In this document: positions 1,360 to 56,109 of the stretch, piece by piece
How the letters are laid out: the number at the start of each line of letters is the position of its first letter
Position numbering within the stretch: the first letter of the stretch is position 1
Source of the DNA: Candidatus Enterousia sp.
GTDB lineage: Bacteria > Pseudomonadota > Alphaproteobacteria > Rs-D84
Direction: 5' to 3'
Assembly (NCBI GenBank): GCA_045539815.1
Contig: JAZQGC010000009.1
Span: forward strand, 9,064-73,063
DNA: 64,000 bases
Position numbers and translations under genes: made by a program
Notes under the pieces: model-generated
Told to the model about the DNA's origin: nothing
Seen by the model: the letters and a program-made list of their open reading frames with translations, nothing else
Databases searched by the model: none

Positions 1360-3645
1360 ATGCAAATCGTTATGGCAAAGAAATCAAAGTTTTTACCAGA
1401 ACGTGTTTCTGGGGCGCTAAAAAATCTGGGGCAACGTATTGTTGGCGCAGTTATTTGTTTGTTGGGCTTGTGGGCAACGCTGGCAATGGTGTTGTTGAAC
1501 CCGTGGTTGGATGGTTTTGCGGTATCCAGTACATTTGGTAATCAATATCTGATGGGAAACATTGTGGCGTTTGTGCGATATGTGTTTGGATTTATCCCGG
1601 GGCTGTTTTTATGTCTGTGTGTGTCCAGATGGGGGGCGGTGAAGTTTATCGCATTAAACGATAATGTGGCCCCAGAATATAATTTCTTGCGCGGGTTTGT
1701 TGCGTTGTGTGTCGGGGCGGTTGGGTTTGGATTAATTGCGCCAAGTGCAACATATGGTGGATTGTTGGGGGCGATTGCCGCAGATGATTTATGGTTACTT
1801 GTTGGAAATGCGGCTGTTGTGGTTGGAATTTTATGTCTGTTGGCTTTTGTTGGATTGGGGGCGATTTTATTACATATAAAATGGTCTCATTTGCGTTGGG
1901 GGGCCAAGGTTTTGGGTTATTGGCTGCGATTGATTGCAGGGGCATTCCATCTGAGTAAAAACGCGCAGCAGATTAAATTTAATGCAGACGATGGTGATGA
2001 TGTTCCTGAAACAGCAGATACAGAAAATACAGACAATGCGGGCACAGAAGACGATGGAAATGCAAAACAAAAACGCAGCTTGCTAAGAAAAAAAGTTGAT
2101 AAAAAAGTTGTTGCGCCGGTCGCCACCGTCAGTGCCGTAAAACCACGCGCTGGTGCGGCATATCAGTTGCCAGAACCAAGATTTTTAGAACGGTCTAATT
2201 TCAGCAAGTATTCTGTTACGCCAGAATTGAAACAAAATGCACGAAATATGGAAACACATTTTGCAGAATATGGTGTGTTTGGCAAAGTGGTGGGAATAAA
2301 GCCGGGACCAATTGTCACTTTGTATGAATTTGAACCTGATACCGGTATGCGTATCGCCGATATTACAAAAACGGTCAAGGATATGACACGTGCAATGGCA
2401 ACAGAAAATATTCGTATCGCACATATACCACGTACAAACTATGTTGGCGTTGAAATGGTTAATATTAAACGGCAAACGGTGCGTTTCAGGGGACTGGTTG
2501 AAAATCCTGTGTTTGTGGAATCTAAATACAGAATACCGTTGGCGTTGGGGGTTGATATTGGTGGAAATCCAATGTATTTTGATTTGGCAAAAATGCCGCA
2601 TATGTTGGTTGCTGGACGTACTGGGTCTGGTAAGTCTGTGTTTGTTCAGTCTATTATAACATCGATTGTTTATCATTTTACACCAGATAAATGTAAGTTA
2701 ATGATTATTGACCCAAAAGGTGTTGATTTTGGTTTCTGGGATGATATTCCACATCTGATAACACCAATCGTCAAGTTGGACCCAGGGGCCGCTGTAAACG
2801 CATTAAAGTGGGCCGTAAGGGAAATGGAAGAAAGATATAAACAATTACAGGTCTTGAACGCCAGAAATATAGAAAGCTATAATGAAATGGCGGCAGAAAA
2901 ACGTGCCAATGGCGAGAAATTAACCAAACAAGTTGCCGTTGGTACAGACGAAGAAACAGGCGAATTGTTGTTCGAAACCCAAGAAGTTGATTTGTCTGAT
3001 ATGCCGTATATCGTAATCGTTATTGACGAGGTGGCAGACCTGATGAGTTTGGCACGCAAAGAAGTTGAAGCGTGTGTTCAACGTATCGCACAAAAGGCAC
3101 GTGCCGCAGGTATTCATTTGGTTATGGCAACACAGCGACCAGATGCCACAACAATTACAGGTGTTATCAAAGCGAACTTTCCAACGCGTGTTTCTTTCCA
3201 GGCGCGCAGTCGTATTGACAGCGTTACAACATTGGGCGAAGGTGGCGCGGAACAGTTGTTGGCAATGGGGGACATGTTGTTTAGCGAGGCCGGACGCGTG
3301 CCTGTTCGTATTCATGGCGCGTTCATAGATGATAGCGAATTAAACAGAATAGGGGATTTCTTGCGTTCACAAGGGACACCAGAATATGCAGACGGTGTAA
3401 CAGATGGTGAAGATGTCGCTGGTGCAGATATGGGTATGGTATCCGGTGGGGGCGCGGGTGCAGACAAGGATTCTGATTATGCACGTGCCAAGGAATGTGT
3501 GTTGCGTGATAAAAAACCAACGATTTCTTATATCCAACGCAGATTGCAGATTGGGTATAACAAGGCCGCCGGGTTTATGGAACGTATGGAACAAGAAGGA
3601 ATTGTCAGTGCGCCTGATGCAAATAATAAACGACATATATTATAA
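1360..3645 (+). CDS. ftsK: DNA translocase FtsK
   Basis: N-terminal TM helices and an acidic linker are followed by the Walker A motif VAGRTGSGKSV. A C-terminal gamma-domain-like segment is present (ISYIQRRLQIGYNKAAGFMERMEQEGIVS). Confidence 0.9.
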   Translation: MQIVMAKKSKFLPERVSGALKNLGQRIVGAVICLLGLWATLAMVLLNPWLDGFAVSSTFGNQYLMGNIVAFVRYVFGFIPGLFLCLCVSRWGAVKFIALNDNVAPEYNFLRGFVALCVGAVGFGLIAPSATYGGLLGAIAADDLWLLVGNAAVVVGILCLLAFVGLGAILLHIKWSHLRWGAKVLGYWLRLIAGAFHLSKNAQQIKFNADDGDDVPETADTENTDNAGTEDDGNAKQKRSLLRKKVDKKVVAPVATVSAVKPRAGAAYQLPEPRFLERSNFSKYSVTPELKQNARNMETHFAEYGVFGKVVGIKPGPIVTLYEFEPDTGMRIADITKTVKDMTRAMATENIRIAHIPRTNYVGVEMVNIKRQTVRFRGLVENPVFVESKYRIPLALGVDIGGNPMYFDLAKMPHMLVAGRTGSGKSVFVQSIITSIVYHFTPDKCKLMIIDPKGVDFGFWDDIPHLITPIVKLDPGAAVNALKWAVREMEERYKQLQVLNARNIESYNEMAAEKRANGEKLTKQVAVGTDEETGELLFETQEVDLSDMPYIVIVIDEVADLMSLARKEVEACVQRIAQKARAAGIHLVMATQRPDATTITGVIKANFPTRVSFQARSRIDSVTTLGEGGAEQLLAMGDMLFSEAGRVPVRIHGAFIDDSELNRIGDFLRSQGTPEYADGVTDGEDVAGADMGMVSGGGAGADKDSDYARAKECVLRDKKPTISYIQRRLQIGYNKAAGFMERMEQEGIVSAPDANNKRHIL

Positions 3646-3712: not shown

Positions 3713-4993
3713 ATGAAAAAACAGTTGGGTTTATTGTTTGGAACGTTGTTTGCGTTGTGTGGCGCAGATGCATCTGCGGCGACAACGTGGGGAATGCGTG
3801 CCGGGTCCAGTGCAGATTTGTCCACTGGGGCGTCAACGCGTACACAAGAAAGCGTTAATTATAAAAAATATCAGACGCGTTCAACAACATATGAAACAAA
3901 AGACGCAGGTGATTTATATTATACAAAACCACAAAATCGCAGCGCATTGTATAAACAATACGAAGGTGCAAATTCTTCGTCTGCACGCGTAACTAAAAAG
4001 ACTGTGCGCAAGACCCGTTCTGAAACGGTTATTAATAAAATGAAGCGTAAATATTATTTGGCGCATCCGTTCTTTCAACCATTGCAGGGCAAGTTTGGTT
4101 CAATTACAGATTTGTCGTATTTGTCATCTGAATATGATATTAAATTGCCGACCGGGGGGTCTGGACTGTATGCAGATTTAGGAAATGGTATTCAAGAGCT
4201 GTCTTTTAATGGACTGGAAGGGAATTGGAACAGATCTGAATTGTTGATAAAAGAAGATTTTAGCTATGGTATTACAGACCGCTTGGCGTTGCTTGTAATG
4301 GCACAATATAATTCAACAGACGATGAATATAAATGGGCCGCTGGTACAGGTGACAAGATTAGCAACAAGGGCCTGAATATGTATGGCGCAGGTGTACAGT
4401 GGCGCTTTGTTGATAATAATAAATGGATTGCAACAGCGTCCGCTTATTATCAACATCAAAAAGATATTTCTAATAATTTCTTGTTAGACATCAAGGCAGG
4501 ATACAAGATTGCACAATCAACCATTTATGGTTTGGCACGCGGTTGGTATCTGGATTTTGAAGGCGACTATTATGGCAATGGTGTTGTTGGTAAAGATTTG
4601 AATAATCAAGACAGCGCGTTTATGTTGGTATATGGTGATGGCGGCAGCGCCAGGTTTATAGAAGGGGGAATTGGTGTTTTCAGTGTGTTAAATCCTGATT
4701 GGACGCTGAATCTGGAAGCCGTTCTGGGGGATTATGATTGGCATACCCAGGCAAATATCAAGGGGGCAATTGGTTGGCAACCAAATGATTGGTTTGCGTT
4801 GAACCTGTATGCAAAAACTGTGTTTTACAGCGATGTTGATGGTAAAAAGCTGGATACACTGTATTGGTTAGATGGTGTCTATGAAGATAGTCAATTGCAA
4901 AAACCGTTAACATATTTTAAAAATATTGGAATGTCTGAATTGGATAACTATTCTGAATATTCAATTGGTGTTCAGGCAATATTCCAGTTCTAG
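3713..4993 (+). CDS. outer membrane beta-barrel protein (signal peptide, C-terminal Phe)
   Basis: Signal peptide MKKQLGLLFGTLFALCGADASAA. The sequence has alternating amphipathic strands and ends in QAIFQF. Family not identified. Confidence 0.55.
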   Translation: MKKQLGLLFGTLFALCGADASAATTWGMRAGSSADLSTGASTRTQESVNYKKYQTRSTTYETKDAGDLYYTKPQNRSALYKQYEGANSSSARVTKKTVRKTRSETVINKMKRKYYLAHPFFQPLQGKFGSITDLSYLSSEYDIKLPTGGSGLYADLGNGIQELSFNGLEGNWNRSELLIKEDFSYGITDRLALLVMAQYNSTDDEYKWAAGTGDKISNKGLNMYGAGVQWRFVDNNKWIATASAYYQHQKDISNNFLLDIKAGYKIAQSTIYGLARGWYLDFEGDYYGNGVVGKDLNNQDSAFMLVYGDGGSARFIEGGIGVFSVLNPDWTLNLEAVLGDYDWHTQANIKGAIGWQPNDWFALNLYAKTVFYSDVDGKKLDTLYWLDGVYEDSQLQKPLTYFKNIGMSELDNYSEYSIGVQAIFQF

Positions 4994-5011: not shown

Positions 5012-5055
5012 GTATTGCCCCGATATATCTTGTGGGGCAATACATGTGTTTTTTT
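5012..5055 (+). terminator. intrinsic terminator after the OMP gene
   Basis: Stem gtattgcccc (5012-5021) pairs with ggggcaatac (5034-5043), followed by a T-run. Confidence 0.55.
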
Positions 5056-5074
5056 AGGAGAGAGGAAACCGATT

Positions 5075-5812
5075 ATGCATAAACTTTTATCTGTATTTTT
5101 TGCGTCTGTTTTAGTGGCACTGCCAATGGTGGCCGGGGCGAATTCGTTGGAACATGATTCTTCGGATCCGTTGTATTTGCTGGCAGATGAAGAAATTTTA
5201 AGTAAGTCGAATATCGCTTATTGGGATCATATGTTGCGTGTTGGACAAAGTGTTTCGTATGGTCTGAACAGCCGTTTGGCAATCGGGGCAGATGTGCATT
5301 ATCAACATCATTTTAATGGTGATGAAGATGGTTTTTCTGCCGTTGATTTTGGGGCAATTTATCGTGTAACCCAACCAGGTGATATAAAATCTAATATTAT
5401 TACAGATTTATTGTTGGGATTTAAAATCGGAGGCAGTTCGCATGTGCGTACGCCGTATTATGCAGATTCTACATATTATGCAGGTGTGCGTTTTGGGCGT
5501 CAATGGGCCGGGATGACGTTGGCAGCAACAATAAAATCTAATTGGGTGTTTGATGATGAACGCGGGATGTCTTTTATTGATTTAACACCCGAAGCTTATT
5601 TCAGATTGTCACCAGATTGGCGTATCGGTGGCGGTTTTACAATTCGTAAAGCAACAAATAAAGATGCACAAACAGGTGATGATTATGACCAAGAATGGTT
5701 GCATATGAAATTAGTGCGTCAGTATGGTCGAACACAATATATCGGACATATTGATTACGAATTTGAAAGCGATGATGTTCAAATCGGTGCAAAGTTAAAT
5801 ATTTTGTTCTGA
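5075..5812 (+). CDS. outer membrane beta-barrel protein (MipA/OmpV-like size)
   Basis: RBS aggagagagg precedes the ATG at 5075. Signal peptide MHKLLSVFFASVLVALPMVAGA. The protein ends in LNILF. The upstream in-frame extension from 5015 lies inside the terminator hairpin. Confidence 0.5.
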   Translation: MHKLLSVFFASVLVALPMVAGANSLEHDSSDPLYLLADEEILSKSNIAYWDHMLRVGQSVSYGLNSRLAIGADVHYQHHFNGDEDGFSAVDFGAIYRVTQPGDIKSNIITDLLLGFKIGGSSHVRTPYYADSTYYAGVRFGRQWAGMTLAATIKSNWVFDDERGMSFIDLTPEAYFRLSPDWRIGGGFTIRKATNKDAQTGDDYDQEWLHMKLVRQYGRTQYIGHIDYEFESDDVQIGAKLNILF

Positions 5813-7538: not shown

Positions 7539-9560
7539 TTGTGTGCAAAGGATTGCTGTATGAAAGTCTGTGTTGATATCCATGATAAACGTTGGAATAA
7601 ATATAATATTGATTTTGATAAAATTGTCTGTGCGGCGGTTTCTGGCGTACGCAAGGATTCTGAGGTTTCAATTATCTTGACTGATGATGCTGAAATTCAT
7701 GGTGTGAACAAGCAGTATCGTGGTGTGGATAAACCGACAAATGTTTTGTCGTTTGAATTGGGTGATGATATTTTATTGGGTGATATTTATATATCGTTAG
7801 ATACTGTAAAGCGCGAGGCTGAACAGGCCGGTATCAGTGTCGAAGATCATGTTACGCATATGGTTGTGCATGGGGGATTGCATTTGTTGGGCTATGATCA
7901 TATTACCGATGATGAAGCGTCTGTCATGGAAATGAAGGAAATAAAAATATTAAAAAAGTTGGGAATAAAAAATCCTTATACGGATGATGTGGTGTCGTCA
8001 TGTAAATGCGGTGATTGTTGCCCCGGTGGTTGTTTTGTCGCAGGAATAAAAAAATTAAAAATAAAGCAAAATGGTTTTATGCAATACTTTCTGTACGGCG
8101 TATTTGGTGTGTTGGCCAGTTTGGGGTTTGCACCGTTTTATTATGGTTTGTTTACGGTCTTGGGGGTTGCTGGTGCGTATTGGTTGACGGTCAGAAATAC
8201 GGATAAAAGTGGGCTTTGGAAGACATTGTTGCGTGTTTCGCCGTTTGGCGCGTTGTATTGTTTGTCTATGTTTTGGTGGGTATTAAATTCTATATATGTT
8301 GTGCCAGAAATTGCGTCGCAATACGCAATATGGACACTGCCCGGGGTCGTTGGATTAATGCTGGCCGGTGTGATGATATTTTCATGGCCGTTTATTGCCG
8401 TGACCAAGGTTCGTGCAAATGCCATGGGGCGTGTTTTCTTGTTCGCGTCCGTATGGGTGTTAGTGTTGTGGGCGCGTGAGTGGATGTTTACTGGTTTCCC
8501 ATGGAACCCGATTGCAAATATCGCAATGCCGTATCCAGTGTTGGCAAATTCAATGTCTGTTTTCGGTGCGCTGGGGTTAAGTTTTTTAATTGTTGGTTTG
8601 ATTGCGTCTGTTGTTGAAGTGTGCAGAAGAAAAAAATATGCAATTTATACATTTGTTTTCTTTGTGTTGTTGGCTGTATGCGCATGTTTTGCTGGGGTGC
8701 ATAATATGCGATTGGCCGATGTTGGTGCCACGGATGAACATGTTATGTTGCGAATTGTGCAACCTGGATTGTCGCAAAGTCAAAAGGCCACCCATAACAG
8801 GGTAGAGGCATTGCAAAAAGCATCAGATAATTTATATAATTTAGTAAAATTGGCAAATGTTGATAATAATGCTGATATTATTTTGTTCCCAGAAACGGCG
8901 TATCCCTTTGTTGTTATGAAAGATGATTTGATAGATGTTGCAAGATATCTGAATAAGCCAATGTTAATTGGTGCAAATGTTTTTGACGCGGGCGGTTTAT
9001 TTAATTCGATGGTTGTAGCCCAAGAAAATGGCCGTATACAACAGATTTATAGCAAGACACATTTGGTGCCGTTTGGTGAATATAGGCCGTTGGGGGTTTT
9101 GCCGTCACCAGTTAATTTAACGCCTGGTAATGGACCGGAAATTATAAGTGTTGGAAATTTTGTTTTTGCACCGGCGATTTGTTATGAAATTATTTTTTCT
9201 GATTCTTTGTTAGAATCTGGGGTGGGGCGTGTTGATGCAATTGTTAATCTGACAAATGATAATTGGTTTGGTAATACGCCGGGCGTTTATCAGCATCTGG
9301 ATATGGTGCGCCGTTATGCCATTGAGTCAGGGGTGCCAATTGTGCGTGCAAATTATTCTGGTATCAGCGCATTTGTTGCGTCAGATGGTGAAATTATTTC
9401 TGCGTTGCCGGTTGGCGCAGTTGATGTGTTGGATGGTTTTGTATGGGGCGCACATCAAACACCATATCGACAGATTGGATTAAATGGTTGGTTGATAATT
9501 ATTTTGTCTGTATCTGTGTTTGGGATTTTTATATCAAAGCTGATAGATCGTAAAAATTAA
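7539..9560 (+). CDS. ybeY/lnt: in-frame fusion ORF: endoribonuclease YbeY domain (N-terminal ~150 aa) joined to apolipoprotein N-acyltransferase Lnt (C-terminal ~510 aa)
   Basis: The YbeY H3xH zinc motif HMVVHGGLHLLGYDH is present. A Cys-rich linker VVSSCKCGDCCPGGCF follows, then the Lnt TM region (LGFAPF, EWMFTGFPWNP) and a CN-hydrolase domain (ILFPETAYP…). There is no stop codon between the two domains. Confidence 0.75.
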   Translation: MCAKDCCMKVCVDIHDKRWNKYNIDFDKIVCAAVSGVRKDSEVSIILTDDAEIHGVNKQYRGVDKPTNVLSFELGDDILLGDIYISLDTVKREAEQAGISVEDHVTHMVVHGGLHLLGYDHITDDEASVMEMKEIKILKKLGIKNPYTDDVVSSCKCGDCCPGGCFVAGIKKLKIKQNGFMQYFLYGVFGVLASLGFAPFYYGLFTVLGVAGAYWLTVRNTDKSGLWKTLLRVSPFGALYCLSMFWWVLNSIYVVPEIASQYAIWTLPGVVGLMLAGVMIFSWPFIAVTKVRANAMGRVFLFASVWVLVLWAREWMFTGFPWNPIANIAMPYPVLANSMSVFGALGLSFLIVGLIASVVEVCRRKKYAIYTFVFFVLLAVCACFAGVHNMRLADVGATDEHVMLRIVQPGLSQSQKATHNRVEALQKASDNLYNLVKLANVDNNADIILFPETAYPFVVMKDDLIDVARYLNKPMLIGANVFDAGGLFNSMVVAQENGRIQQIYSKTHLVPFGEYRPLGVLPSPVNLTPGNGPEIISVGNFVFAPAICYEIIFSDSLLESGVGRVDAIVNLTNDNWFGNTPGVYQHLDMVRRYAIESGVPIVRANYSGISAFVASDGEIISALPVGAVDVLDGFVWGAHQTPYRQIGLNGWLIIILSVSVFGIFISKLIDRKN

Positions 9561-31758: not shown

Positions 31759-33303
31759 ATGTTCAAAAGGTTGTTATTCGTTTTGTTGTTTTGTGGGGCG
31801 CATGTGTGCGCAAATGCCACAATTGTAACTAATGATATTTGGGGCGCGCAAAAGACATTTAATACAGATTTTTCTGTCAGTGAAAATGTTACTGTCGCAC
31901 CAAATGATGTATATTTGTCGCAATCGGTGAATATTTATAACCAAGGATTAATAAAAACAAATATTCATGTGTGTGACAGATGTCATGTTTATGTTCAGAA
32001 TTCTGGGGTGATTGATTCTGAATTTGTCTTGGGGACAGATGCCAAGATGTTTCAAGTTGTTAATACAAAACAGGATTTAAATGCAATTAATACAAATGCC
32101 GATTATGTTGTTCTGGTGACAAGCGATGATGTGTTGTCTTTGTCTGATGTTGTTAATATGGCAGGAACAGCCCAGGGAGTGGTTGTTGAAAATACAAAAT
32201 TAAATGTAGATTCTGTGCCAGATAATAAATCGTTGCCGATTGATATTGGTGATAATGTGGTCTTGGTCGTTAATGATACAACAGAATTAGATGGTGTGGT
32301 TTTGTTGGATAATGTTCAGGGTGGGTGGTCTGTGCGTTTTGAAGAGCAGAATTCTGATCCAATGTATTCTGTTACGGGTGCGATTAATAATGGCAGATTG
32401 TCGATTAATCGCATGCGCGAAACAAACTATGCAATTGTCCTGGAAAACGATAAGCGTGGTATGTTCTTGAATGAATTGCGGGAACAGGGTGGGGCGGAAA
32501 AGCTGTTTTCGCATCTGGACAGTGCGCCAGATATGAAAGCACTGGATGATATAATGATGCGGTCAGCGCGTTTTAATTTGGATGTTTTGTTGCAACCCGT
32601 ACAAACAATGTATGCATTTGATATGTTGCGTTATGATTTTGCGTCTGTGTTGTCTGGTGCTGATGCGTATGCCATTACGGCAGATGACTATTTTATATAT
32701 GGTTTAAATTTGAAACATAATATGAACCTGTCTGATGGGGTTAGTATTGGTGTTGGTGTGCGTGTTGGACAGATGGAATATAAGTCTGATTTGGATGATT
32801 TTTCAGCCTTGAATTATGGGTTGAATTTAAATGTGAAATATAAATTCTTGTCAGATGCGTTTGTGCGGACAGATGTGGTTGCGATGATGTCTGATTTTGA
32901 TATTGGATTGGTCAGTTACGATAATAATGTTATTTCAAATCCGCGTGCATTATCAGGATATTGGTTAACTGATATTGGATATAAATTTGATTTGTCCGAT
33001 TCGTTTTATTTGACACCGTATGTTGGTTGTGTTGTTGATTATTATAATCTGGAAGATATTGTGCAATCTGACGCGGTTGGTCGTGTTGGTATGGATATGG
33101 GGTATACTTTTGAATTTTCAGGAATTCGTTATAATTATGACGCGCGAATTGGGTTGAATAATTTTGCTGATATTGTGGCATCTGGACGAATCGGTGTGTG
33201 GTCAGATATCGATTCGTTTGGTGGTGATGTTACTGTATCGGTTATATCAATGACAGATGTTGTTTCTTATGGTGTATCGGCAAATTTGAAATTTGCATTT
33301 TAA
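31759..33303 (+). CDS. autotransporter-like outer membrane protein (passenger region plus C-terminal beta-barrel)
   Basis: Signal peptide MFKRLLFVLLFCGAHVCANA, an N-terminal half of about 250 aa, a C-terminal half with alternating strands, and a terminal LKFAF. Confidence 0.45.
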   Translation: MFKRLLFVLLFCGAHVCANATIVTNDIWGAQKTFNTDFSVSENVTVAPNDVYLSQSVNIYNQGLIKTNIHVCDRCHVYVQNSGVIDSEFVLGTDAKMFQVVNTKQDLNAINTNADYVVLVTSDDVLSLSDVVNMAGTAQGVVVENTKLNVDSVPDNKSLPIDIGDNVVLVVNDTTELDGVVLLDNVQGGWSVRFEEQNSDPMYSVTGAINNGRLSINRMRETNYAIVLENDKRGMFLNELREQGGAEKLFSHLDSAPDMKALDDIMMRSARFNLDVLLQPVQTMYAFDMLRYDFASVLSGADAYAITADDYFIYGLNLKHNMNLSDGVSIGVGVRVGQMEYKSDLDDFSALNYGLNLNVKYKFLSDAFVRTDVVAMMSDFDIGLVSYDNNVISNPRALSGYWLTDIGYKFDLSDSFYLTPYVGCVVDYYNLEDIVQSDAVGRVGMDMGYTFEFSGIRYNYDARIGLNNFADIVASGRIGVWSDIDSFGGDVTVSVISMTDVVSYGVSANLKFAF

Positions 33304-49809: not shown

Positions 49810-51093
49810 ATGCAGACAGTGGCAAAATTACAAATGACTAACTTGGAAGATATCAAGGGGGCCATTGCCGCAAAAATGGATTCTGCAAGTTTTGCTTCTT
49901 GGGTTGCACCATTAACATTTGATATTGTAAATGATACCTTGGTTTTGGGTGCACAAAATCAATTTTCAGCAGATTTTATTAACAGTGTTCATGGCAATAT
50001 GATTGCAGCTGTTGCGCGTGATTTTGGTTTGAATGCGCGTGTTGTTGTGCGTGGGGCGGCGGTTAAAACGGTTGCACCAATTGCAAATGATAATCAGGCC
50101 CAGGTTTATGCGCCTGTGGCAGTGGCACAGAACAATGCGTCTGTTGCGTTTGATTCTTTTGTTGTGTGTGATGAAAATATGTTTGTTGTATCGGCATGCA
50201 AAAAATTGGCAGCGGGCAGTGTTCCTTTTTCCCCGCTGTTTATTTATGGTGTGGCAGGTTGCGGTAAAACATTATTAACAGAATGTATCGCGGGCGCATC
50301 ACAGGGGCGTGTCGTTAAAATGAGTGGTGCGCAATTTGTTTCTGAATTTACACGCAGCTTGAAAGAACATAATATTTTCGCGTTCAAAGATTTTTGCCGT
50401 AATTGCGATACTTTTATTTTGGATGATGTACAAAGCTTGTCTGGTAAAAAGGCGTCAACAGATGAATTCTTGCAATTGGTTGTTGATTTGCGTAATGCGG
50501 GCAAGAACATTGTTTTGACATCAAATGCGGCCCCAAACAATATGACAGGATTTGACAGACGTGCACAATCTTTGTTGGCGTCTGGTTTGGTTGCGGATGT
50601 TTGTGCGCCAAATGCACATGTAAAATCTGTTATGTTAAAGCGTGCAGGTGTTGCAACAGATGTTGCAGATGCGATTGCGTCACGTATTGCAAATGATGGT
50701 CACTTGATTGCAGGTGTTGCGACAAAAATCAAAACATATGTTGATTTGATGGGTGCTGCGGTTGATATGGATGTTGCACAACGTTTGTTGGCAGATACAT
50801 TGCAGAAAACAAAAACACCATCTGCAATGGTTAAAGAAATGTGTGAAAAATTGGCTGTATCTTATGATGCGGTATGTGGTAATGGTCGCAGTCGTTCATT
50901 GGTTTTGGCGCGTCAGATAATGATGGTTGTATTAAAAAATGTTACGGGTTTGTCTTTGACAGAAATTGGTAATTTTGTTGGTGGTCGTGATCATGCAACG
51001 GTTTTGTATGCAATCAAACAAATTGAAAAACAACAGGCGTCAGATTTGGTTTTGTCCGCCCAGATTCAACAGTTGATTGGTGAATATAAATAA
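49810..51093 (+). CDS. dnaA: chromosomal replication initiator protein DnaA
   Basis: AAA+ motifs LFIYGVAGCGKTLL, FILDDVQ and VLTSN, plus domain IV SLTEIGNFVGGRDHATVLYAIKQIE. Confidence 0.8.
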   Translation: MQTVAKLQMTNLEDIKGAIAAKMDSASFASWVAPLTFDIVNDTLVLGAQNQFSADFINSVHGNMIAAVARDFGLNARVVVRGAAVKTVAPIANDNQAQVYAPVAVAQNNASVAFDSFVVCDENMFVVSACKKLAAGSVPFSPLFIYGVAGCGKTLLTECIAGASQGRVVKMSGAQFVSEFTRSLKEHNIFAFKDFCRNCDTFILDDVQSLSGKKASTDEFLQLVVDLRNAGKNIVLTSNAAPNNMTGFDRRAQSLLASGLVADVCAPNAHVKSVMLKRAGVATDVADAIASRIANDGHLIAGVATKIKTYVDLMGAAVDMDVAQRLLADTLQKTKTPSAMVKEMCEKLAVSYDAVCGNGRSRSLVLARQIMMVVLKNVTGLSLTEIGNFVGGRDHATVLYAIKQIEKQQASDLVLSAQIQQLIGEYK

Positions 51094-51183: not shown

Positions 51184-52530
51184 ATGAAGAAATTTTTATT
51201 ATTTGTCTTGGCTTTGTTTGGTTGTGTGTCTGGTGCTGCGGCAGTGGAAGAATGTTTTGTACCAACAGATAGATTTGAGTTGGCAGGGTTTCAGAAAAGT
51301 ACTGATGATGAATTTTTGTATGATGCGGATGGGAATATTTATGAATGTGATGATGAGTTTTGTACTGATTCCCAAGAAGTGACTATGCCCGCAGGACATA
51401 TTTGGCAGGGTAAAACATATGGTGAATCTGTGAAGTATAGGTGTCGTATAGGTGATTATTTTAATGAAGACCGTTGGGAGCGCGTGGCCTTGGATAATAG
51501 AACGCAAGAGTTTACAGAGGATAAGATAGAATATGCGACGGGAGGGTGTGGGAATCCTGTTGGTTTAACAGAATATAGATTTGGGCAGTTTTCTGCGGAT
51601 AATGAGTTTATATATGATAAAGGGAAAGTGTACGAGTGTGATAATGAATTTTGTAAAGATGGGACAGAGAAATGTTTTGACGCGGGGCATTATTGGAAGG
51701 GGAAAGAAATCAAAGGAGCAGTAAAATATCGTTGTGAAGGTAGGACAAACTGGGTGCAGATTGAAATTGGTGACAAGTGTGTTGGTGGTAAAATAGCGCC
51801 AGGTCCTGGGGATTCTGATAAACCAAAGCCCGGGGAAAATAAAAAATCTTGCGTAGAAACGCGTAGTACGGCAGAGGGTAAGGCGTGTTGTTCGTTGTCG
51901 GATAGTGTTGCAAGGTGGACAGGAAGTGAATGTGTTTGTGTTGATACGAATAGGGAGTTTTCTTATGAGGGTTTGCAGGGGTATTGTAATACTAAGGGGA
52001 ATGAGGATGGTATTTATACTTGTGGACCGGCTGATCATGATAGTTTTACTATATGGACAACACAGTGTGCAGATTTTCCGGAAGGGTTGGCTTATATTGA
52101 GCAGCTGAAAGCGATGTGTGGTACAGCAAAGACGAGTGAATATGATAAATTGTTTAATGTGGTTCAAAGTTTTGTTAATGCCAAGTGTCAGAAAAGCACG
52201 GTGATACAAGAAGTAGTGGTAATAAAAGAAGAAAAACCAAAAAATACTGATGCGGAACGCAAAAAGATTTTGGCGGCTGAAAGCGTTTTGAAGGATATTG
52301 AATCCGGATTTGATGTCAGTGTTTGGAAAGACGCTGATGGTAAATTTAATACTGCGCGTTTGGCATCAGATTCAATTGCGGGTGTTGTTTTGGGTACCGC
52401 GGGTGGTTTGATTACCAGCAGCGTTATCAAAAAACATCAGGTAGAAGACGGATTCGAAGATATTAACTGTGTAATTGGCGGTCAATCTGTCGCCGGTTGG
52501 GGTGATGAATTTAGTGTTGGTGTTCAATAA
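51184..52530 (+). CDS. secreted cysteine-rich protein with two tandem ~60-aa repeats and a C-terminal hydrophobic segment
   Basis: Signal peptide. Repeats DDEFLYDADGNIYECDDEFCTD…KYRC and DNEFIYDKGKVYECDNEFCKD…KYRC. A C-terminal Gly-rich helix IAGVVLGTAGGLITSSVI. There are 24 Cys in total. Confidence 0.55.
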   Translation: MKKFLLFVLALFGCVSGAAAVEECFVPTDRFELAGFQKSTDDEFLYDADGNIYECDDEFCTDSQEVTMPAGHIWQGKTYGESVKYRCRIGDYFNEDRWERVALDNRTQEFTEDKIEYATGGCGNPVGLTEYRFGQFSADNEFIYDKGKVYECDNEFCKDGTEKCFDAGHYWKGKEIKGAVKYRCEGRTNWVQIEIGDKCVGGKIAPGPGDSDKPKPGENKKSCVETRSTAEGKACCSLSDSVARWTGSECVCVDTNREFSYEGLQGYCNTKGNEDGIYTCGPADHDSFTIWTTQCADFPEGLAYIEQLKAMCGTAKTSEYDKLFNVVQSFVNAKCQKSTVIQEVVVIKEEKPKNTDAERKKILAAESVLKDIESGFDVSVWKDADGKFNTARLASDSIAGVVLGTAGGLITSSVIKKHQVEDGFEDINCVIGGQSVAGWGDEFSVGVQ

Positions 52531-52561
52531 TAAAAATGCCCCGTTGTGGGGCATTTTTTTA
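52531..52561 (+). terminator. intrinsic terminator
   Basis: atgcccc-gttgt-ggggcat followed by T7. Confidence 0.7.
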
Positions 52562-52701
52562 TGGTGTGTGCTGATTTTTATTGTTTACAGATATGTAAAA
52601 AATTGATATAATTACAGAGATAAACATACATTTTGTATGGCGGAAATTAATGAAAGGTTGGGTTTCTGGGGATTGTGGCCCGAAACACACAGGGGGGTTA
52701 G

Positions 52702-55533
52702 ATGATAAGTCAAAAAATCGTAGGTTCTGTCAAAAATGCAGTTGGGACTGTTTTCTTGTTGATGGGTGCGTTTTTGGTTTGTTCTACATTGGTGTCAATG
52801 CGTACGGTGTTGGCTGATCCGATTGCGCCAATTAATGACCAGGCTGTTTTGGTGCAACAGTTGGGAACTCAACAGGGTAATGCGCGCGGTGCGGCATTGC
52901 GTGAAAGTCCACGAAATCGTGCGACGACGCGTACAAATGTTGCACGTACAACTGTGGCGCCTGCAACAAATTCACGTGCGGTGGCAACACGTGCGGCAAA
53001 TTCGCGTGCGGCCACGGTGAATAATGCGCGTGCAACAACACGGGCGGCGGCAAAACGCGCCGTGTCTTCGCGTGCAACGGCAACACCAACGCGTGGGGTT
53101 GTGCAAAATCAACGCAGTGTCGTTTCGCGCAGTGCAAATGTTGCAAACAGAACAACAGCAATAAATAATCGTAATGTTCGTGCCCGTACGGCTGTGGCCG
53201 CGGATTCTGCGCGCGTTTCTTTGCAGGGCAGTGCAATTCGTGGTTCGAAAACAAGTGGTGGAACCAGTTATTCTTATCTGACGAATAAACTGTATACGGG
53301 AAATTATTCCAATATTATCGATTCAACCACAGGATTGATTTCAGCGGATGCGTTTAATAATTGTTTGGAATCTTATTATGCGTGTATGGATGAAATCTGT
53401 ACCGCGCGTAACCAGGCCCAGCGTCGTTGTGCGTGCGCTGGACGCGTAACCGCATTTGCAGAGGCAGAAGCCGCACTGGAAACAGCAAACGAAGAATTAA
53501 TCAAGGCGTCTGGTGAATTGGCATTGTTGGTTGCAAATCGTGGTAAAGATGTATCAGAAGCATTTCAATTAACCGAAGCGGAACAGGTTATGAACTGTGT
53601 TTCATGGCAAGAGGTTACAAATCAATATGGTACAAATTCTGAACAGGCCATAGATTGGTGTTCGTCGCATGGAATCTTTAATGATGGCAAGGTGGTAACA
53701 AGTTGTGGTATGCCAGATTATTGTTCCAATAACAGCTTTGGATTTGATGTCAAGAATTTAAATGGAAACGGGTCTGATATATTGGCGTCTTTACAGGCGT
53801 GGGCTGATGCCAAAGAACGCACAATCACCATTTTAACAGATGATGAAAATTCTTTGTTAAATGCATTCGAAGGTGTTTCTGGTGTGGTCAGCAATTTGGC
53901 CGGATTGAGTGATGGTTTTGCTGCAAATGAAGAAACCAAGGATTCTTTGGCGGAAACATGGGGGTATGAATTGTTTGCACATGCCCATAACGAGGTTTGC
54001 AGTCGTGTTCTGGATTCTTGTTTTAATGGTATTTATGAATCGTGTGGTTCACCATCGTCGTTCGGTGGAAAATGCGCAAATGGCCAGTCTTCGAATTGTC
54101 CGTTTAACTATAATTCCAAGATAAAAGTCAGTGCAAAGGGCGAAATTGATTTGTTCGAACGCGGTGTGTCGTCCACAACCAATGCCAGTGCGTCTTGTTT
54201 TGGATATACATCAACATCGGGTGATCCATATTCTAATTTGCGTGGGCCGGTTGCTGATGCGCGTCGCAGTATTATGAATAAGTATTTGTTGGACGCAAAT
54301 GCTGATTGCGATTTGTATGGCGAACAATTGCGTACAACCGCACAAAATATCGCCTATCAAAAGGTTGCTGCACAACAGGCGTTGCAACAAAAACGTTTGG
54401 AATTCGCAGTTGAAGAAGAAGAAGAAATCTTGACTGCGGCGATTGAAGCGGGAACAAACTTTAATGAATGTTTAAGTGAAATTTATGATTGTTATGAAAG
54501 TACATCTGACAGTGAACCAAATTGGCCAGATGCGCGTGTGAAAACTTATTGTGCGCAGATTGCAAATGTACCGCATTGCTATGAAGAGATGATTTGTAAT
54601 CCTTCTACGGCACAATTCAAGGCAATCATAGACAAGGCAGACAATGCACAATGTGATAATAATCAAGATTATACAAAAAATACTTGCCGTAATATTGTTA
54701 CATTGAATGAAATCTTGAAAGGTACGGGCGTGAATGGCGCGTCTGTTGAATTGGATGGCAAAGGAAATTCTGCTGCAATGCGTGAACAATGCTTGTTGGA
54801 TGCGGGCGTGGCAGATATCCGTAACTGGTCCACAGATGTTGTTCTGGAACAAAGATGTTCTGTGGCTGAGTTGCCGAAAAATGCAACAACTGGTTACAAG
54901 GATAAAAATGGAAATTGTGTTGCGCTGACATGTAACGAAGGGTATTTGTTGATTAATGGTGAATGTAATCAATCGTCAAGATTGGACTGCACAAAGGCTA
55001 TCCCAGGCGCAAAACAGGCGTATAGAGAACTGGAAAATGGACAGTATGGTGATTGTAAATTGGATTCTTGTCTGGATAATTATGAAAAAGTTGGCAATGA
55101 ATGTAAGCCAAACACTGAATCTTGTCCGGCAGATACATTGACTGTTCTGAATGCAATCAGTGGAACACGTGTTTGGGGCGGTAGTGCGTGGGATGGTTGT
55201 GTGATAAAAGCATGTAAATCTGGGTTCGAATTGTATAACAATACATGTTATAAAACAACTGCTTCGTGTGATATCCAAAATGCCAAGGTTGCACGGCAGG
55301 ATTTTGTTAATGGTTCATATGGCGCGTGTTATGTTGTAGAGTGCGAAACCAATTATCAACCCAATGCAGATGAAACAAAATGCGAACCAAAAACCGTGGC
55401 TTGCACAACACTGCCAGCAAATGCAACGGCTGGGACACGGACATGGCAGGGAACTGATTGGTCGGAATGTGAAATAACCAAGTGCGTTGATGATTATGAT
55501 TTAGTCGACAACAAGTGTGTTAAAAAAGAATAA
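52702..55533 (+). CDS. large (943 aa) secreted/membrane-anchored cysteine-rich repeat protein
   Basis: N-terminal hydrophobic signal/anchor. An Arg/Thr/Ala-rich low-complexity tract of about 110 aa (RNRATTRTNVARTTVAPATNSRAVATRAANSRAATV…). A central Cys-rich domain. Five C-terminal modules of about 45 aa, each with four Cys of the form C-x2-3-C-x2-(G/N/D)(Y/F)-x5-7-C, e.g. CVALTCNEGYLLINGEC. Confidence 0.6.
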   Translation: MISQKIVGSVKNAVGTVFLLMGAFLVCSTLVSMRTVLADPIAPINDQAVLVQQLGTQQGNARGAALRESPRNRATTRTNVARTTVAPATNSRAVATRAANSRAATVNNARATTRAAAKRAVSSRATATPTRGVVQNQRSVVSRSANVANRTTAINNRNVRARTAVAADSARVSLQGSAIRGSKTSGGTSYSYLTNKLYTGNYSNIIDSTTGLISADAFNNCLESYYACMDEICTARNQAQRRCACAGRVTAFAEAEAALETANEELIKASGELALLVANRGKDVSEAFQLTEAEQVMNCVSWQEVTNQYGTNSEQAIDWCSSHGIFNDGKVVTSCGMPDYCSNNSFGFDVKNLNGNGSDILASLQAWADAKERTITILTDDENSLLNAFEGVSGVVSNLAGLSDGFAANEETKDSLAETWGYELFAHAHNEVCSRVLDSCFNGIYESCGSPSSFGGKCANGQSSNCPFNYNSKIKVSAKGEIDLFERGVSSTTNASASCFGYTSTSGDPYSNLRGPVADARRSIMNKYLLDANADCDLYGEQLRTTAQNIAYQKVAAQQALQQKRLEFAVEEEEEILTAAIEAGTNFNECLSEIYDCYESTSDSEPNWPDARVKTYCAQIANVPHCYEEMICNPSTAQFKAIIDKADNAQCDNNQDYTKNTCRNIVTLNEILKGTGVNGASVELDGKGNSAAMREQCLLDAGVADIRNWSTDVVLEQRCSVAELPKNATTGYKDKNGNCVALTCNEGYLLINGECNQSSRLDCTKAIPGAKQAYRELENGQYGDCKLDSCLDNYEKVGNECKPNTESCPADTLTVLNAISGTRVWGGSAWDGCVIKACKSGFELYNNTCYKTTASCDIQNAKVARQDFVNGSYGACYVVECETNYQPNADETKCEPKTVACTTLPANATAGTRTWQGTDWSECEITKCVDDYDLVDNKCVKKE

Positions 55534-55560
55534 AAAAACCGCCAATCGGCGGTTTTTTTA
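55531..55560. terminator. bidirectional intrinsic terminator
   Basis: A7-accgcc-aatc-ggcggt-T7 between convergent genes. Confidence 0.7.
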
Positions 55561-56019
55561 ATGTTGATTATTTTTCTTGTATTTTTCAATCAATTTGGCA
55601 CGGATTGCGATTTCTTGTTCTATATCTTTCCATGTTGCTTGATTTAAATGTTCTTTGTAATTTTTTTCGTATTCGTCAAATATGTATAACGAATGTGGGA
55701 ATACTAATGCAACAGGATCCAATGTTTTGCAGCTTTTGTATTCAATGATTGTTGTTGCAATCTCTGGTCCCATGACTGTTTGTAATTGTTCTTGATGTAT
55801 TGACATTTCGTATGCGCATGGATTTGGAAAATTGATTGCACTCAGCCAACCTGTATTTGTTTGTTGTTCGACACCATTGATTTTTATAACTGCCATTGGT
55901 GTTTCATAGCACATACCAAAAAATGCGTTCGGCATGAATGAACCGAATTTTATGTTATAGGTTGTTTTTAATACAGAATTGTCTTGTGTTTTTGTATTTG
56001 TTGTTTCTTTATTTGACAT
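55558..56019 (-). CDS. hypothetical protein (~153 aa; alternative upstream start at 56085)
   Basis: ORF with protein-like composition. No recognised motif. Confidence 0.45.
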   Translation of the reverse strand: MSNKETTNTKTQDNSVLKTTYNIKFGSFMPNAFFGMCYETPMAVIKINGVEQQTNTGWLSAINFPNPCAYEMSIHQEQLQTVMGPEIATTIIEYKSCKTLDPVALVFPHSLYIFDEYEKNYKEHLNQATWKDIEQEIAIRAKLIEKYKKNNQH

Positions 56020-56109
56020 GTTAATGTACCTTTGTTTTTTTATCATTGTAATACAATAAAATAAATTGTCAATAATTATAAGCAAAAAAAACTGGGGTCG
56101 CCCCCAGCT

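Follow-up and report, generated by a model that had tools for sequence, protein, structure and literature searches.

The 64,000-nucleotide stretch of Candidatus Enterousia sp. DNA analysed here (contig JAZQGC010000009.1, positions 9,064 to 73,063 of the forward strand; hereafter the window) carries at 52702-55533 (+) an open reading frame (ORF) that encodes a cysteine-rich protein of 943 amino acids (aa), hereafter the target. This protein belongs to an undescribed family that is restricted to Candidatus Enterousia and the order Rs-D84. The family is defined by a conserved unit covering aa 1 to ~710, and the five four-cysteine modules that follow this unit in the target are accessory, dynamic and fast-evolving. 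The ORF list and the translation of the window give an ATG start and 943 codons plus a stop, and reading the translation bears out the initial annotation, made from the letters of the sequence, as regards the ORF itself, its N-terminal signal or anchor, its Cys-rich region and its five C-terminal modules. NCBI holds a protein (P0001) identical to the target, and an exact-sequence lookup of P0001 returned no record.

A large protein search recovered more than 1146 homolog clusters, all of them unnamed. Most homologs are 690-760 aa long and aligned, in BLASTP, only to aa 1 to ~710 of the target, with 63-68% identity. Considered by region, identity to the orthologs is 62-85% in the signal or anchor segment (aa 1-40), 45-70% in the Arg-rich tract (aa 41-190), 65-86% in the core (aa 191-716) and 31-45% in the tail (aa 717-943). 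Of the 24 core cysteines, 23 are invariant or reach at least 90% conservation, also with divergent orthologs of 32-36% identity included. The target itself aligns over the full length of the conserved unit and carries the signature motif described below, the sequence LDANADCD and the 24 core cysteines. An exhaustive HMMER scan of 1.84 billion representatives gave 96 matches, ~36 of them full-length family clusters; as so few full-length clusters were found among so many sequences, the family, which has many members, is phylogenetically narrow.

The initial annotation had called for a check of the distribution in related genomes. When one genome from each GTDB species was scanned for the pattern, 298 of them turned out to contain relatives, all from the Candidatus Enterousia/Rs-D84 lineage. 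Their labels read Candidatus Enterousia, Alphaproteobacteria metagenome-assembled genome (MAG) or "uncultured Rickettsiales", and their sources are the guts of ruminants, humans, chickens and other hosts. The divergent orthologs with 32-36% identity are found in "Rickettsiales" MAGs which, from their locus tags, we take to be termite-gut sets. Each of 80 loci that we fetched contains exactly one ortholog, 48-73% identical to the target. The closest of them (L012, Candidatus Enterousia sp.) has an identity of 73% for the target and of 81-96% for the housekeeping genes on its flanks. One record, L074 (CAVGNU010000001.1), contains an ortholog with typical Rs-D84 neighbours under the title "Bacteroides fragilis isolate ... 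cleanbin", and is very probably a mislabelled or contaminated bin. Candidatus Enterousia, a gut alphaproteobacterium, belongs to the order Rs-D84, has genomes below 1 Mb and has never been cultured; it lacks the tricarboxylic acid cycle, respiratory chains and standard transporters, having few transporters at all, and a dependence on a partner has been proposed for it (PMC12306168).

The protein begins with a long signal peptide or signal-anchor (aa 1-38, 52702-52815; this and the following parts of the target are all on the plus strand), with K5 and K11 in the n-region, an h-region at aa ~13-33 that is hydrophobic in the hydropathy profile, and VLA-DP as c-region; from the -3/-1 rule, cleavage is predicted between VLA and DP. 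This segment is unusually conserved among orthologs, on a par with the core, and contains three invariant residues, G22, F24 and S28. A lipoprotein anchored through C27 was considered and rejected by eye, as the canonical lipobox [LVI][ASTVI][GAS]C is absent: F-L-V precedes the cysteine (AFLVC), which puts Val at position -1, and the site lies inside the h-region. The Arg-rich tract follows (aa 60-190, 52879-53271), is predicted to be disordered and is nearly devoid of acidic residues: with 22 Arg, 2 Lys, 1 Asp and 1 Glu, it has a net charge of +22. Its composition is 25% Ala, 18% Arg, 14% Thr and 11% Asn. The RATTR and NSRA strings noticed in the initial annotation are present, in a tract that is ~130 aa long rather than the ~110 aa then estimated. 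Among 117 orthologs the tract measures 126-168 aa, has a mean net charge of +21 and contains 1.7% acidic residues, and several of its single Arg positions are invariant. The Arg bias is the result of selection and not of composition, because the background of the proteome favours Lys (6.0%) over Arg (4.6%), and the simplest reading of the tract is that it may act as a basic tether to anionic polymers of the envelope or of a host.

The conserved core (aa 191-716, 53272-54849), which defines the family, is acidic (net charge -37), mostly helical and contains 24 cysteines, all within aa 221-697. The whole target has 45 cysteines (4.8%, against 1.19% in the other 41 proteins of the window), 44 of them beyond the hydrophobic N-terminus. 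Near the start of the core stands the signature motif C-x6-C-MDE-x-C-x9-C-x-C (CLESYYACMDEICTARNQAQRRCAC; aa 221-245, 53362-53436), which is common to a wider superfamily of paralogs and has no second copy in the 64-kb window. Further on, both the core-only and the full-length AlphaFold2 (AF2) models contain a single helix of ~94 residues (aa ~511-604, 54232-54513), which we propose as a stalk.

The tail consists of five modules of two alternating types. Modules 1 (aa 719-755, 54856-54966), 3 (aa 808-849, 55123-55248, with WGGSAWDGC) and 5 (aa 901-939, 55402-55518, with TWQGTDWSEC) are of type A, and modules 2 (aa 763-801, 54988-55104, with GQYGDC) and 4 (aa 856-894, 55267-55383, with GSYGAC) of type B; after module 5 the protein ends with VKKE. 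Each module has four cysteines, at positions 719/739/744/755, 763/785/790/801, 808/833/838/849, 856/876/881/894 and 901/923/928/939, giving the spacing C-x(19-24)-C-x4-C-x(10-12)-C and 37-42 aa from first to last cysteine. The five modules proposed in the initial annotation are real: a hidden Markov model (HMM) trained on 157 homologous modules detects every copy independently (independent E-values, from module 1 to module 5, of 1.3e-10, 2e-12, 1.3e-14, 5.8e-9 and 7.9e-15). The W-x-G-x-x-W-x-x-C pattern, likewise noted there in two modules, was found in modules 3 (VWGGSAWDGC) and 5; modules 2 and 4 contain GxYGxC. The modules of the target are only 14-38% identical to one another. The possibility that they are shared with other proteins of the genome was ruled out within the window, where the module HMM has no other match, and within the 80 loci.

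Among orthologs the number of modules varies from 0 to 6: 79 of the 120 top homologs have none and the remainder 1-6, and at the species level 57 of 81 orthologs have none. On a neighbour-joining tree of the core, an approximate tree on which 59 taxa could be placed, presence and absence of modules changed at least eight times. A strain-level comparison is provided by contig L081 (97.6% nucleotide identity), where the ratio of non-synonymous to synonymous substitution rates (dN/dS) is 0.38 for the tail and 0.07 and 0 for the flanking genes. The tails of the two strains differ by 10 non-synonymous and 7 synonymous changes, mostly charge swaps, and by one indel of 2 aa, with all cysteines retained. 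The pattern is one of relaxed or diversifying turnover in which the disulfide framework stays fixed. A homolog search with the tail alone returned nothing other than one fragment with 95% identity, as divergence of the modules is too rapid for the word index to follow.

The initial annotation had assigned the modules to no known family, and all searches agree with it. Pfam and NCBIfam gave nothing above their cutoffs on the full target, and nothing significant was found among PDB sequences with a single-sequence search, a core profile or a module profile. The full-length AF2 model has a predicted local distance difference test score (pLDDT) of 61.7, with a disordered tract (25-35), a helical core that includes the long helix (H514-604) and modules built of beta-hairpins (80-90; ~80 for module 1). 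A core-only model, computed from a more diverse alignment, reaches 69.3 and shows the same helix of ~94 residues (336-429 in the numbering of the model) at pLDDT 76-93. Foldseek found nothing significant for the core model in the PDB, where the best hits were generic long-helix proteins (best E-value 0.45). A Foldseek search of a viral library also gave nothing significant. The core thus has no curated or solved relative among Pfam, NCBIfam and the PDB, and no toxin-like fold or domain was detected with Pfam, NCBIfam or Foldseek.

For the modules, the nearest curated profile, and the only one approached, is the Pfam family CPL1-like (PF21671), which scored 14.7 bits on the full protein and 24.5 bits (E-value 3e-5, three stretches) on the isolated tail, below its gathering cutoff of 27.4 bits. 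The best of these sub-threshold stretches lies in module 4 (aa 864-894). The alignment is limited to positions 28-59 of the 60 in the profile, that is to a generic C-x4-C-x3-Y...C hairpin rather than the whole profile, and one ortholog (P0022) has a precomputed match to the same family. The family is named after Cpl1, a secreted virulence factor of the fungus Cryptococcus (bioRxiv 10.1101/2021.09.02.458767). Cpl1 and the target are both Cys-rich and secreted, the target very probably so, and the rest of the target is unrelated. Traces of cEGF and TIL were seen on the modules of the tail or of orthologs (for cEGF, E-values of 0.015-2.7 in orthologs, with a cutoff of 26.6 bits), but EGF-like and cEGF domains need six cysteines and each module of the target has four. 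Searched with Foldseek against the PDB, the full model gave for the modules, as best hit, a chain of tandem fibronectin type I (FN1) modules (9a3z_B, probability 0.87, E-value 7e-3, low template modelling score), a weak match short of clear significance, followed by 9a3y_B and 2rky. The resemblance lies in a length of ~40-45 residues, four cysteines, an aromatic residue or Trp in the first hairpin, the C-terminal hairpin C...C-x-x-G-Y/F-x...C and a tandem arrangement at the end of the protein; the differences are the C-x4-C spacing of the target, against C...C-x-C in the FN1 pattern, and its bacterial, lineage-specific setting. The fn1 profile did not match the tail even at E-values up to 10, and the module profile found no FN1 chain in the PDB. 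In our view the most fitting description of the modules is a new family of two-hairpin disulfide modules, FN1/EGF-like in kind; that they belong to FN1, EGF or CPL1-like is not established. Nothing indicates that they are of eukaryotic origin or were acquired by transfer from eukaryotes, and the description "eukaryote-like" is not supported, as it comes down to the weak FN1/EGF fold resemblance and the sub-threshold CPL1-like score.

Two known types of surface protein deserve comparison. Pfam detects no autotransporter or other beta-barrel domain in the target, which is thus not a type V adhesin. The chlamydial protein OmcB combines a signal peptide, a basic glycosaminoglycan-binding N-terminal region and a large Cys-rich body, and has structural as well as adhesin roles. 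The target has a similar order of signal, basic region and Cys-rich body, and both occur in a host-dependent diderm with a reduced genome. However, the target has no DUF11 or other Pfam or NCBIfam match, its body is alpha-helical where that of OmcB is made of beta-sandwich repeats, and its basic tract is much longer (~130 aa) with nearly all of the basic residues Arg.

The weak tier of the exhaustive search consists of distant paralogs from the same lineage that align solely to aa ~211-301 of the target, that is to the motif C..Y[FY].CMD.[FI]C...RC.C and the next helix. These proteins begin with a canonical short signal peptide, continue with a basic tract rich in Ser, Arg, Ala and Thr, and then carry the motif, so that they share with the target the N-terminal unit of signal, basic tract, first Cys motif and helix at ~25% identity. 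They adjoin the ortholog in 27 of the 80 loci, and the MAG of the one labelled paralog encodes an ortholog too. Three are giants of 1504-1849 aa (L046:701-5845, L047:1283-5797 and L047:8914-14463), and in L047 the ortholog is flanked by the two giants of that locus. All three contain PF09479 repeats (E-values from 2.7e-7 to 8e-21) in the C-terminal position that the four-Cys modules hold in the target; Pfam finds no such repeat in the target itself. PF09479, the Listeria-Bacteroides repeat, is typical of bacterial cell-surface proteins. These layouts support the idea of a common N-terminal unit that may display differing C-terminal cargo.

The gene is an independent transcription unit, as the preceding gene has a terminator of its own, and a separate promoter and Shine-Dalgarno sequence precede the target. 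The preceding gene encodes a 448-aa protein, Cys448 (51184-52530, +), and ends on an intrinsic terminator (52536-52560, +) that separates it from the target, a hairpin AUGCCCC-GUUGU-GGGGCAU followed by a U-run with a folding energy of -15.9 kcal/mol (z-score -3.5; none of 200 shuffles was equally stable). A sigma-70-like promoter (52584-52612, +), predicted only by consensus match, has TTTACA, a 17-nt spacer, TATAAT and an extended -10 TG, with 11 of 12 consensus matches; a Shine-Dalgarno sequence AGGGGGG, read from the sequence, is located at 52691-52697 (+), 4 nt before the ATG. At its 3' end the gene shares an intrinsic terminator acting on both strands (55531-55560) with a convergent 175-aa ORF (55558-56085, minus strand). 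As the initial annotation had anticipated, this element, AAAAAAACCGCC-AATC-GGCGGTTTTTTT, is a bidirectional terminator: its perfect A7-stem-loop-T7 hairpin is stable whichever strand is folded (-17.5 kcal/mol on either, z-scores -4.7 and -6.2).

Cys448 contains 22 cysteines, an internal duplication (aa ~30-90 with ~125-185) and a C-terminal hydrophobic anchor. It had been joined with the target in a "two-gene Cys-rich locus", and they are indeed the two most Cys-rich proteins of the window. They are, however, not a functional or evolutionary unit: relationship or co-transcription was rejected because the proteins have no similarity, the genes have separate signals and their adjacency is retained in 1 of the 80 related loci, that of the closest relative. 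There Cys448 is 44% identical while DnaA is 90% identical. The last ~95 aa of Cys448, the membrane-anchor domain, are the only part conserved elsewhere (E-value 2e-37), and match 247-aa proteins encoded just downstream of the ortholog in L002 (8814-9557) and L029 (2480-3223).

Gene order around the orthologs is variable and the neighbours are mostly housekeeping genes (PPDK, DnaQ, UvrD, L21, ValRS, FtsQ/A/K, PBP1a), whose names were read from representatives, without Pfam confirmation. In 42 of the 80 loci the gene immediately upstream, the commonest such neighbour, is divergently oriented (as in L062, 5245-5814, minus strand) and encodes a 189-aa signal-peptide protein with an HFSNG motif; it resembles the PagL-type lipid A deacylase of the outer membrane by eye only, again without Pfam confirmation, and has no homolog in the window. 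One clade (L001, L004, L007, L016 and L041) has the order FtsK-c12-c15-ortholog-c32-c33, in which c12 and c15 (L041, 2783-4960; L001, 4406-5158) are Cys-rich secreted proteins directly 5' of the ortholog, the larger (~725 aa) having a Q-rich coiled coil as well as W..G..C.C modules at its C-terminus, the smaller measuring ~250 aa. In the window FtsK (1360-3645) is followed directly by the homologs of c32 and c33 (3713-4993 and 5015-5812, both resembling outer-membrane protein barrels and ending in F), so that the block with the target has been relocated or rearranged in this genome, the target having moved to the dnaA region. Neither c12 nor c15 has a homolog in the window. Cys448 and a 305-aa protein, h305 (47309-48226, +), were considered as diverged copies of c12 and c15 and rejected for lack of HMM matches. 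In h305 a signal-like N-terminus is accompanied by a short basic stretch of Asn, Arg, Ser and Thr and by a hydrophobic, Gly-rich segment (VWGTVGGVVGGAGIGVGAM). L012 has a counterpart with 81% identity; apart from this, h305 shows only weak similarity, to part of an 896-aa protein in L080.

The window as a whole is a housekeeping region of a diderm bacterium, with FtsK, YbeY/Lnt, LolA, TatC, penicillin-binding proteins, SPOR and LysM-M23 proteins and an outer-membrane barrel, together with an autotransporter barrel, SufBCD, TcpQ and a secretin, DprA, DnaA, a ParE/GyrB-type topoisomerase, DnaJ, PgsA and UvrC. The TcpQ and secretin genes (43538-46084), of a type IVb pilus or of a machinery resembling a type II secretion system, lie 7 kb 5' of the target. 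A 154-aa ORF (61881-62345) has a pilin-like N-terminus (GRSMIEMLGVLAIMG) and no Pfam match. The autotransporter is a 514-aa protein (31759-33303, +) with a signal peptide and a C-terminal autotransporter beta-domain (PF03797, E-value 1.9e-6), which shows that a type V route exists in the organism, one that the target does not use. We also observed that a 673-aa ORF (7539-9560, +) joins a YbeY endoribonuclease domain (aa 26-141) to Lnt domains (aa 190-624), a candidate fusion or an artefact of ORF listing, that dnaA (49810-51093) codes for a short protein of 427 aa, and that UvrC is short too (475 aa). GC skew is positive across the whole window (0.0 to 0.38) and does not change sign at dnaA, so that the skew-defined origin is not beside dnaA here.

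That the target is exported, as first proposed, is very probable from its signal or anchor, the even number of conserved cysteines beyond it and the canonical signal peptides of the paralogs. Beyond this, the reading that we favour, tentatively and at a little less than an even chance, is that of a modular envelope or surface protein in which a basic tether is combined with a helical stalk stapled by disulfides and with distal binding modules that vary. The long conserved N-terminus would export the protein; the Arg tract would hold it electrostatically on anionic polymers of the envelope (lipopolysaccharide phosphates, peptidoglycan, phospholipid) or span the periplasm; the acidic, elongated helical core, with cysteines as disulfide staples, would form a rigid stalk or scaffold carrying the conserved function; and the C-terminal modules would be distal, surface-exposed binding units, the number and sequence of which may shift as the bacterium adapts to the surfaces of its partner or host. 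Export, disulfide formation, surface exposure, tethering and adhesion are each something that we infer. The surface role draws support from the distant paralogs that carry PF09479 surface repeats in the position of the modules, and export and surface location from the diderm nature of the host, which encodes a secretin, TcpQ, an autotransporter, LolA and Lnt. A role in attachment at the cell surface is thus plausible, and the adhesin-like character suggested by the initial annotation can be kept in this form; the modules turn out to be an optional appendix to the 710-aa core and do not define the family.

Several observations weigh against this reading. Conservation of the N-terminal segment equals that of the core, a pattern better matched by an anchor retained in the inner membrane, and hence by a periplasmic protein, than by a cleaved signal. 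For the crossing of the outer membrane we found no beta-barrel, known sorting signal or linked secretion genes among the 80 loci, and gene order is not conserved. The conserved function cannot be adhesion through modules, which most orthologs lack. Positive selection on the tail is not demonstrated, the dN/dS of 0.38 being below 1 and derived from just 17 substitutions, and the confidence of the model is moderate at aa 215-550. The reported lack of respiratory chains in the lineage calls into question the route to ~22 disulfides (PMC12306168), and no Dsb-like protein turned up in ~1.1 Mb of DNA from the lineage, an incomplete sample of genomes in which the hunt for the DsbA motif was uninformative.

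Part of this evidence speaks for the main rival, a structural scaffold of the periplasm or envelope and a functional analogue of the cysteine-rich outer-membrane complex of chlamydiae. An uncleaved N-terminal helix would sit in the inner membrane, the Cys-rich helical core would be cross-linked, the Arg tract would touch either peptidoglycan or the outer membrane at its inner leaflet, and the modules would be dispensable decoration. The conservation of the N-terminal segment with its three invariant residues, a near-universal, single-copy and strongly conserved core in a minimal genome, the absence of an outer-membrane translocation signal and of modules from most orthologs, and the recurrence of envelope genes among the neighbours (barrels resembling outer-membrane proteins, FtsQ/A/K, PBP1a and the 189-aa protein with its PagL-like appearance) are all in keeping with it. 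We nevertheless regard this scaffold as rather unlikely, since fast-evolving module arrays that are gained and lost, like the PF09479 paralogs, are more typical of exposed proteins, since Pfam and Foldseek show no similarity of the target to OmcB/DUF11 or to any known envelope scaffold, and since gene order is too variable to link it to one envelope machine. A protein released into the medium or into a host or partner cell, as an effector (the suggestion of the initial annotation) or toxin whose helical core would act, for example by binding to or inserting into membranes, with the modules targeting a receptor, would account for the export signals and for a Cys content like that of many secreted effectors. 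In its favour are also the genes for a secretin and TcpQ 7 kb 5' of the target, the presumed partner dependence of the lineage (PMC12306168) and the nearest Pfam family of the modules, which is based on a secreted fungal virulence factor (bioRxiv 10.1101/2021.09.02.458767). That match is, however, sub-threshold and covers half of the profile; the core is conserved at housekeeping level with one strict ortholog per genome, where effectors usually vary more; and neither a toxin-like fold or domain nor a linkage to secretion systems across the 80 loci was detected, all of which makes a released effector distinctly doubtful.

The last alternative concerns the cysteines themselves, which might be ligands of Zn or Fe in a protein for metal binding, metal storage or redox sensing in the envelope. 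An anoxic habitat and the reported lack of respiratory chains make oxidative folding problematic (PMC12306168), and the cysteines of the signature motif (C-x6-C-x4-C-x9-C-x-C) are clustered as metal sites often are. Yet the cysteines extend over ~720 residues, are even in number and show the regular four-Cys spacing typical of disulfide-rich extracellular modules, AF2 folds the modules into compact, high-confidence hairpin units without metal, and no His or Asp co-ligands are conspicuously conserved beside the cysteines, so that we hold metal binding to be very improbable. Returning to the modular surface protein, a bolder form of it would make the conserved 710-aa unit a central, lineage-defining structure of the envelope or of attachment, a novel type of surface stalk displaying interchangeable C-terminal cassettes (four-Cys modules or PF09479 repeats) with which these bacteria would attach to partner cells and exploit them; we consider it an unlikely extension.

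Members of Rs-D84 and Candidatus Enterousia are widespread in the guts of humans, livestock and termites (PMC12306168). A gene of 2.1-2.8 kb that is kept at 65-86% identity in ~300 species with minimal genomes must be important to them; for the interface between cells or between cell and host, a Cys-rich exported protein whose distal modules are exchangeable is an obvious candidate. With the core and the four-Cys module, the analysis defines two unannotated sequence families that current databases carry only as "hypothetical", and it provides a concrete handle for antibodies, for sorting coupled to fluorescence in situ hybridization, for pull-downs of partner ligands and for structural work. 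The target, of putative function, is a good candidate for the interface that this uncultured lineage with reduced genomes has with a partner or host.

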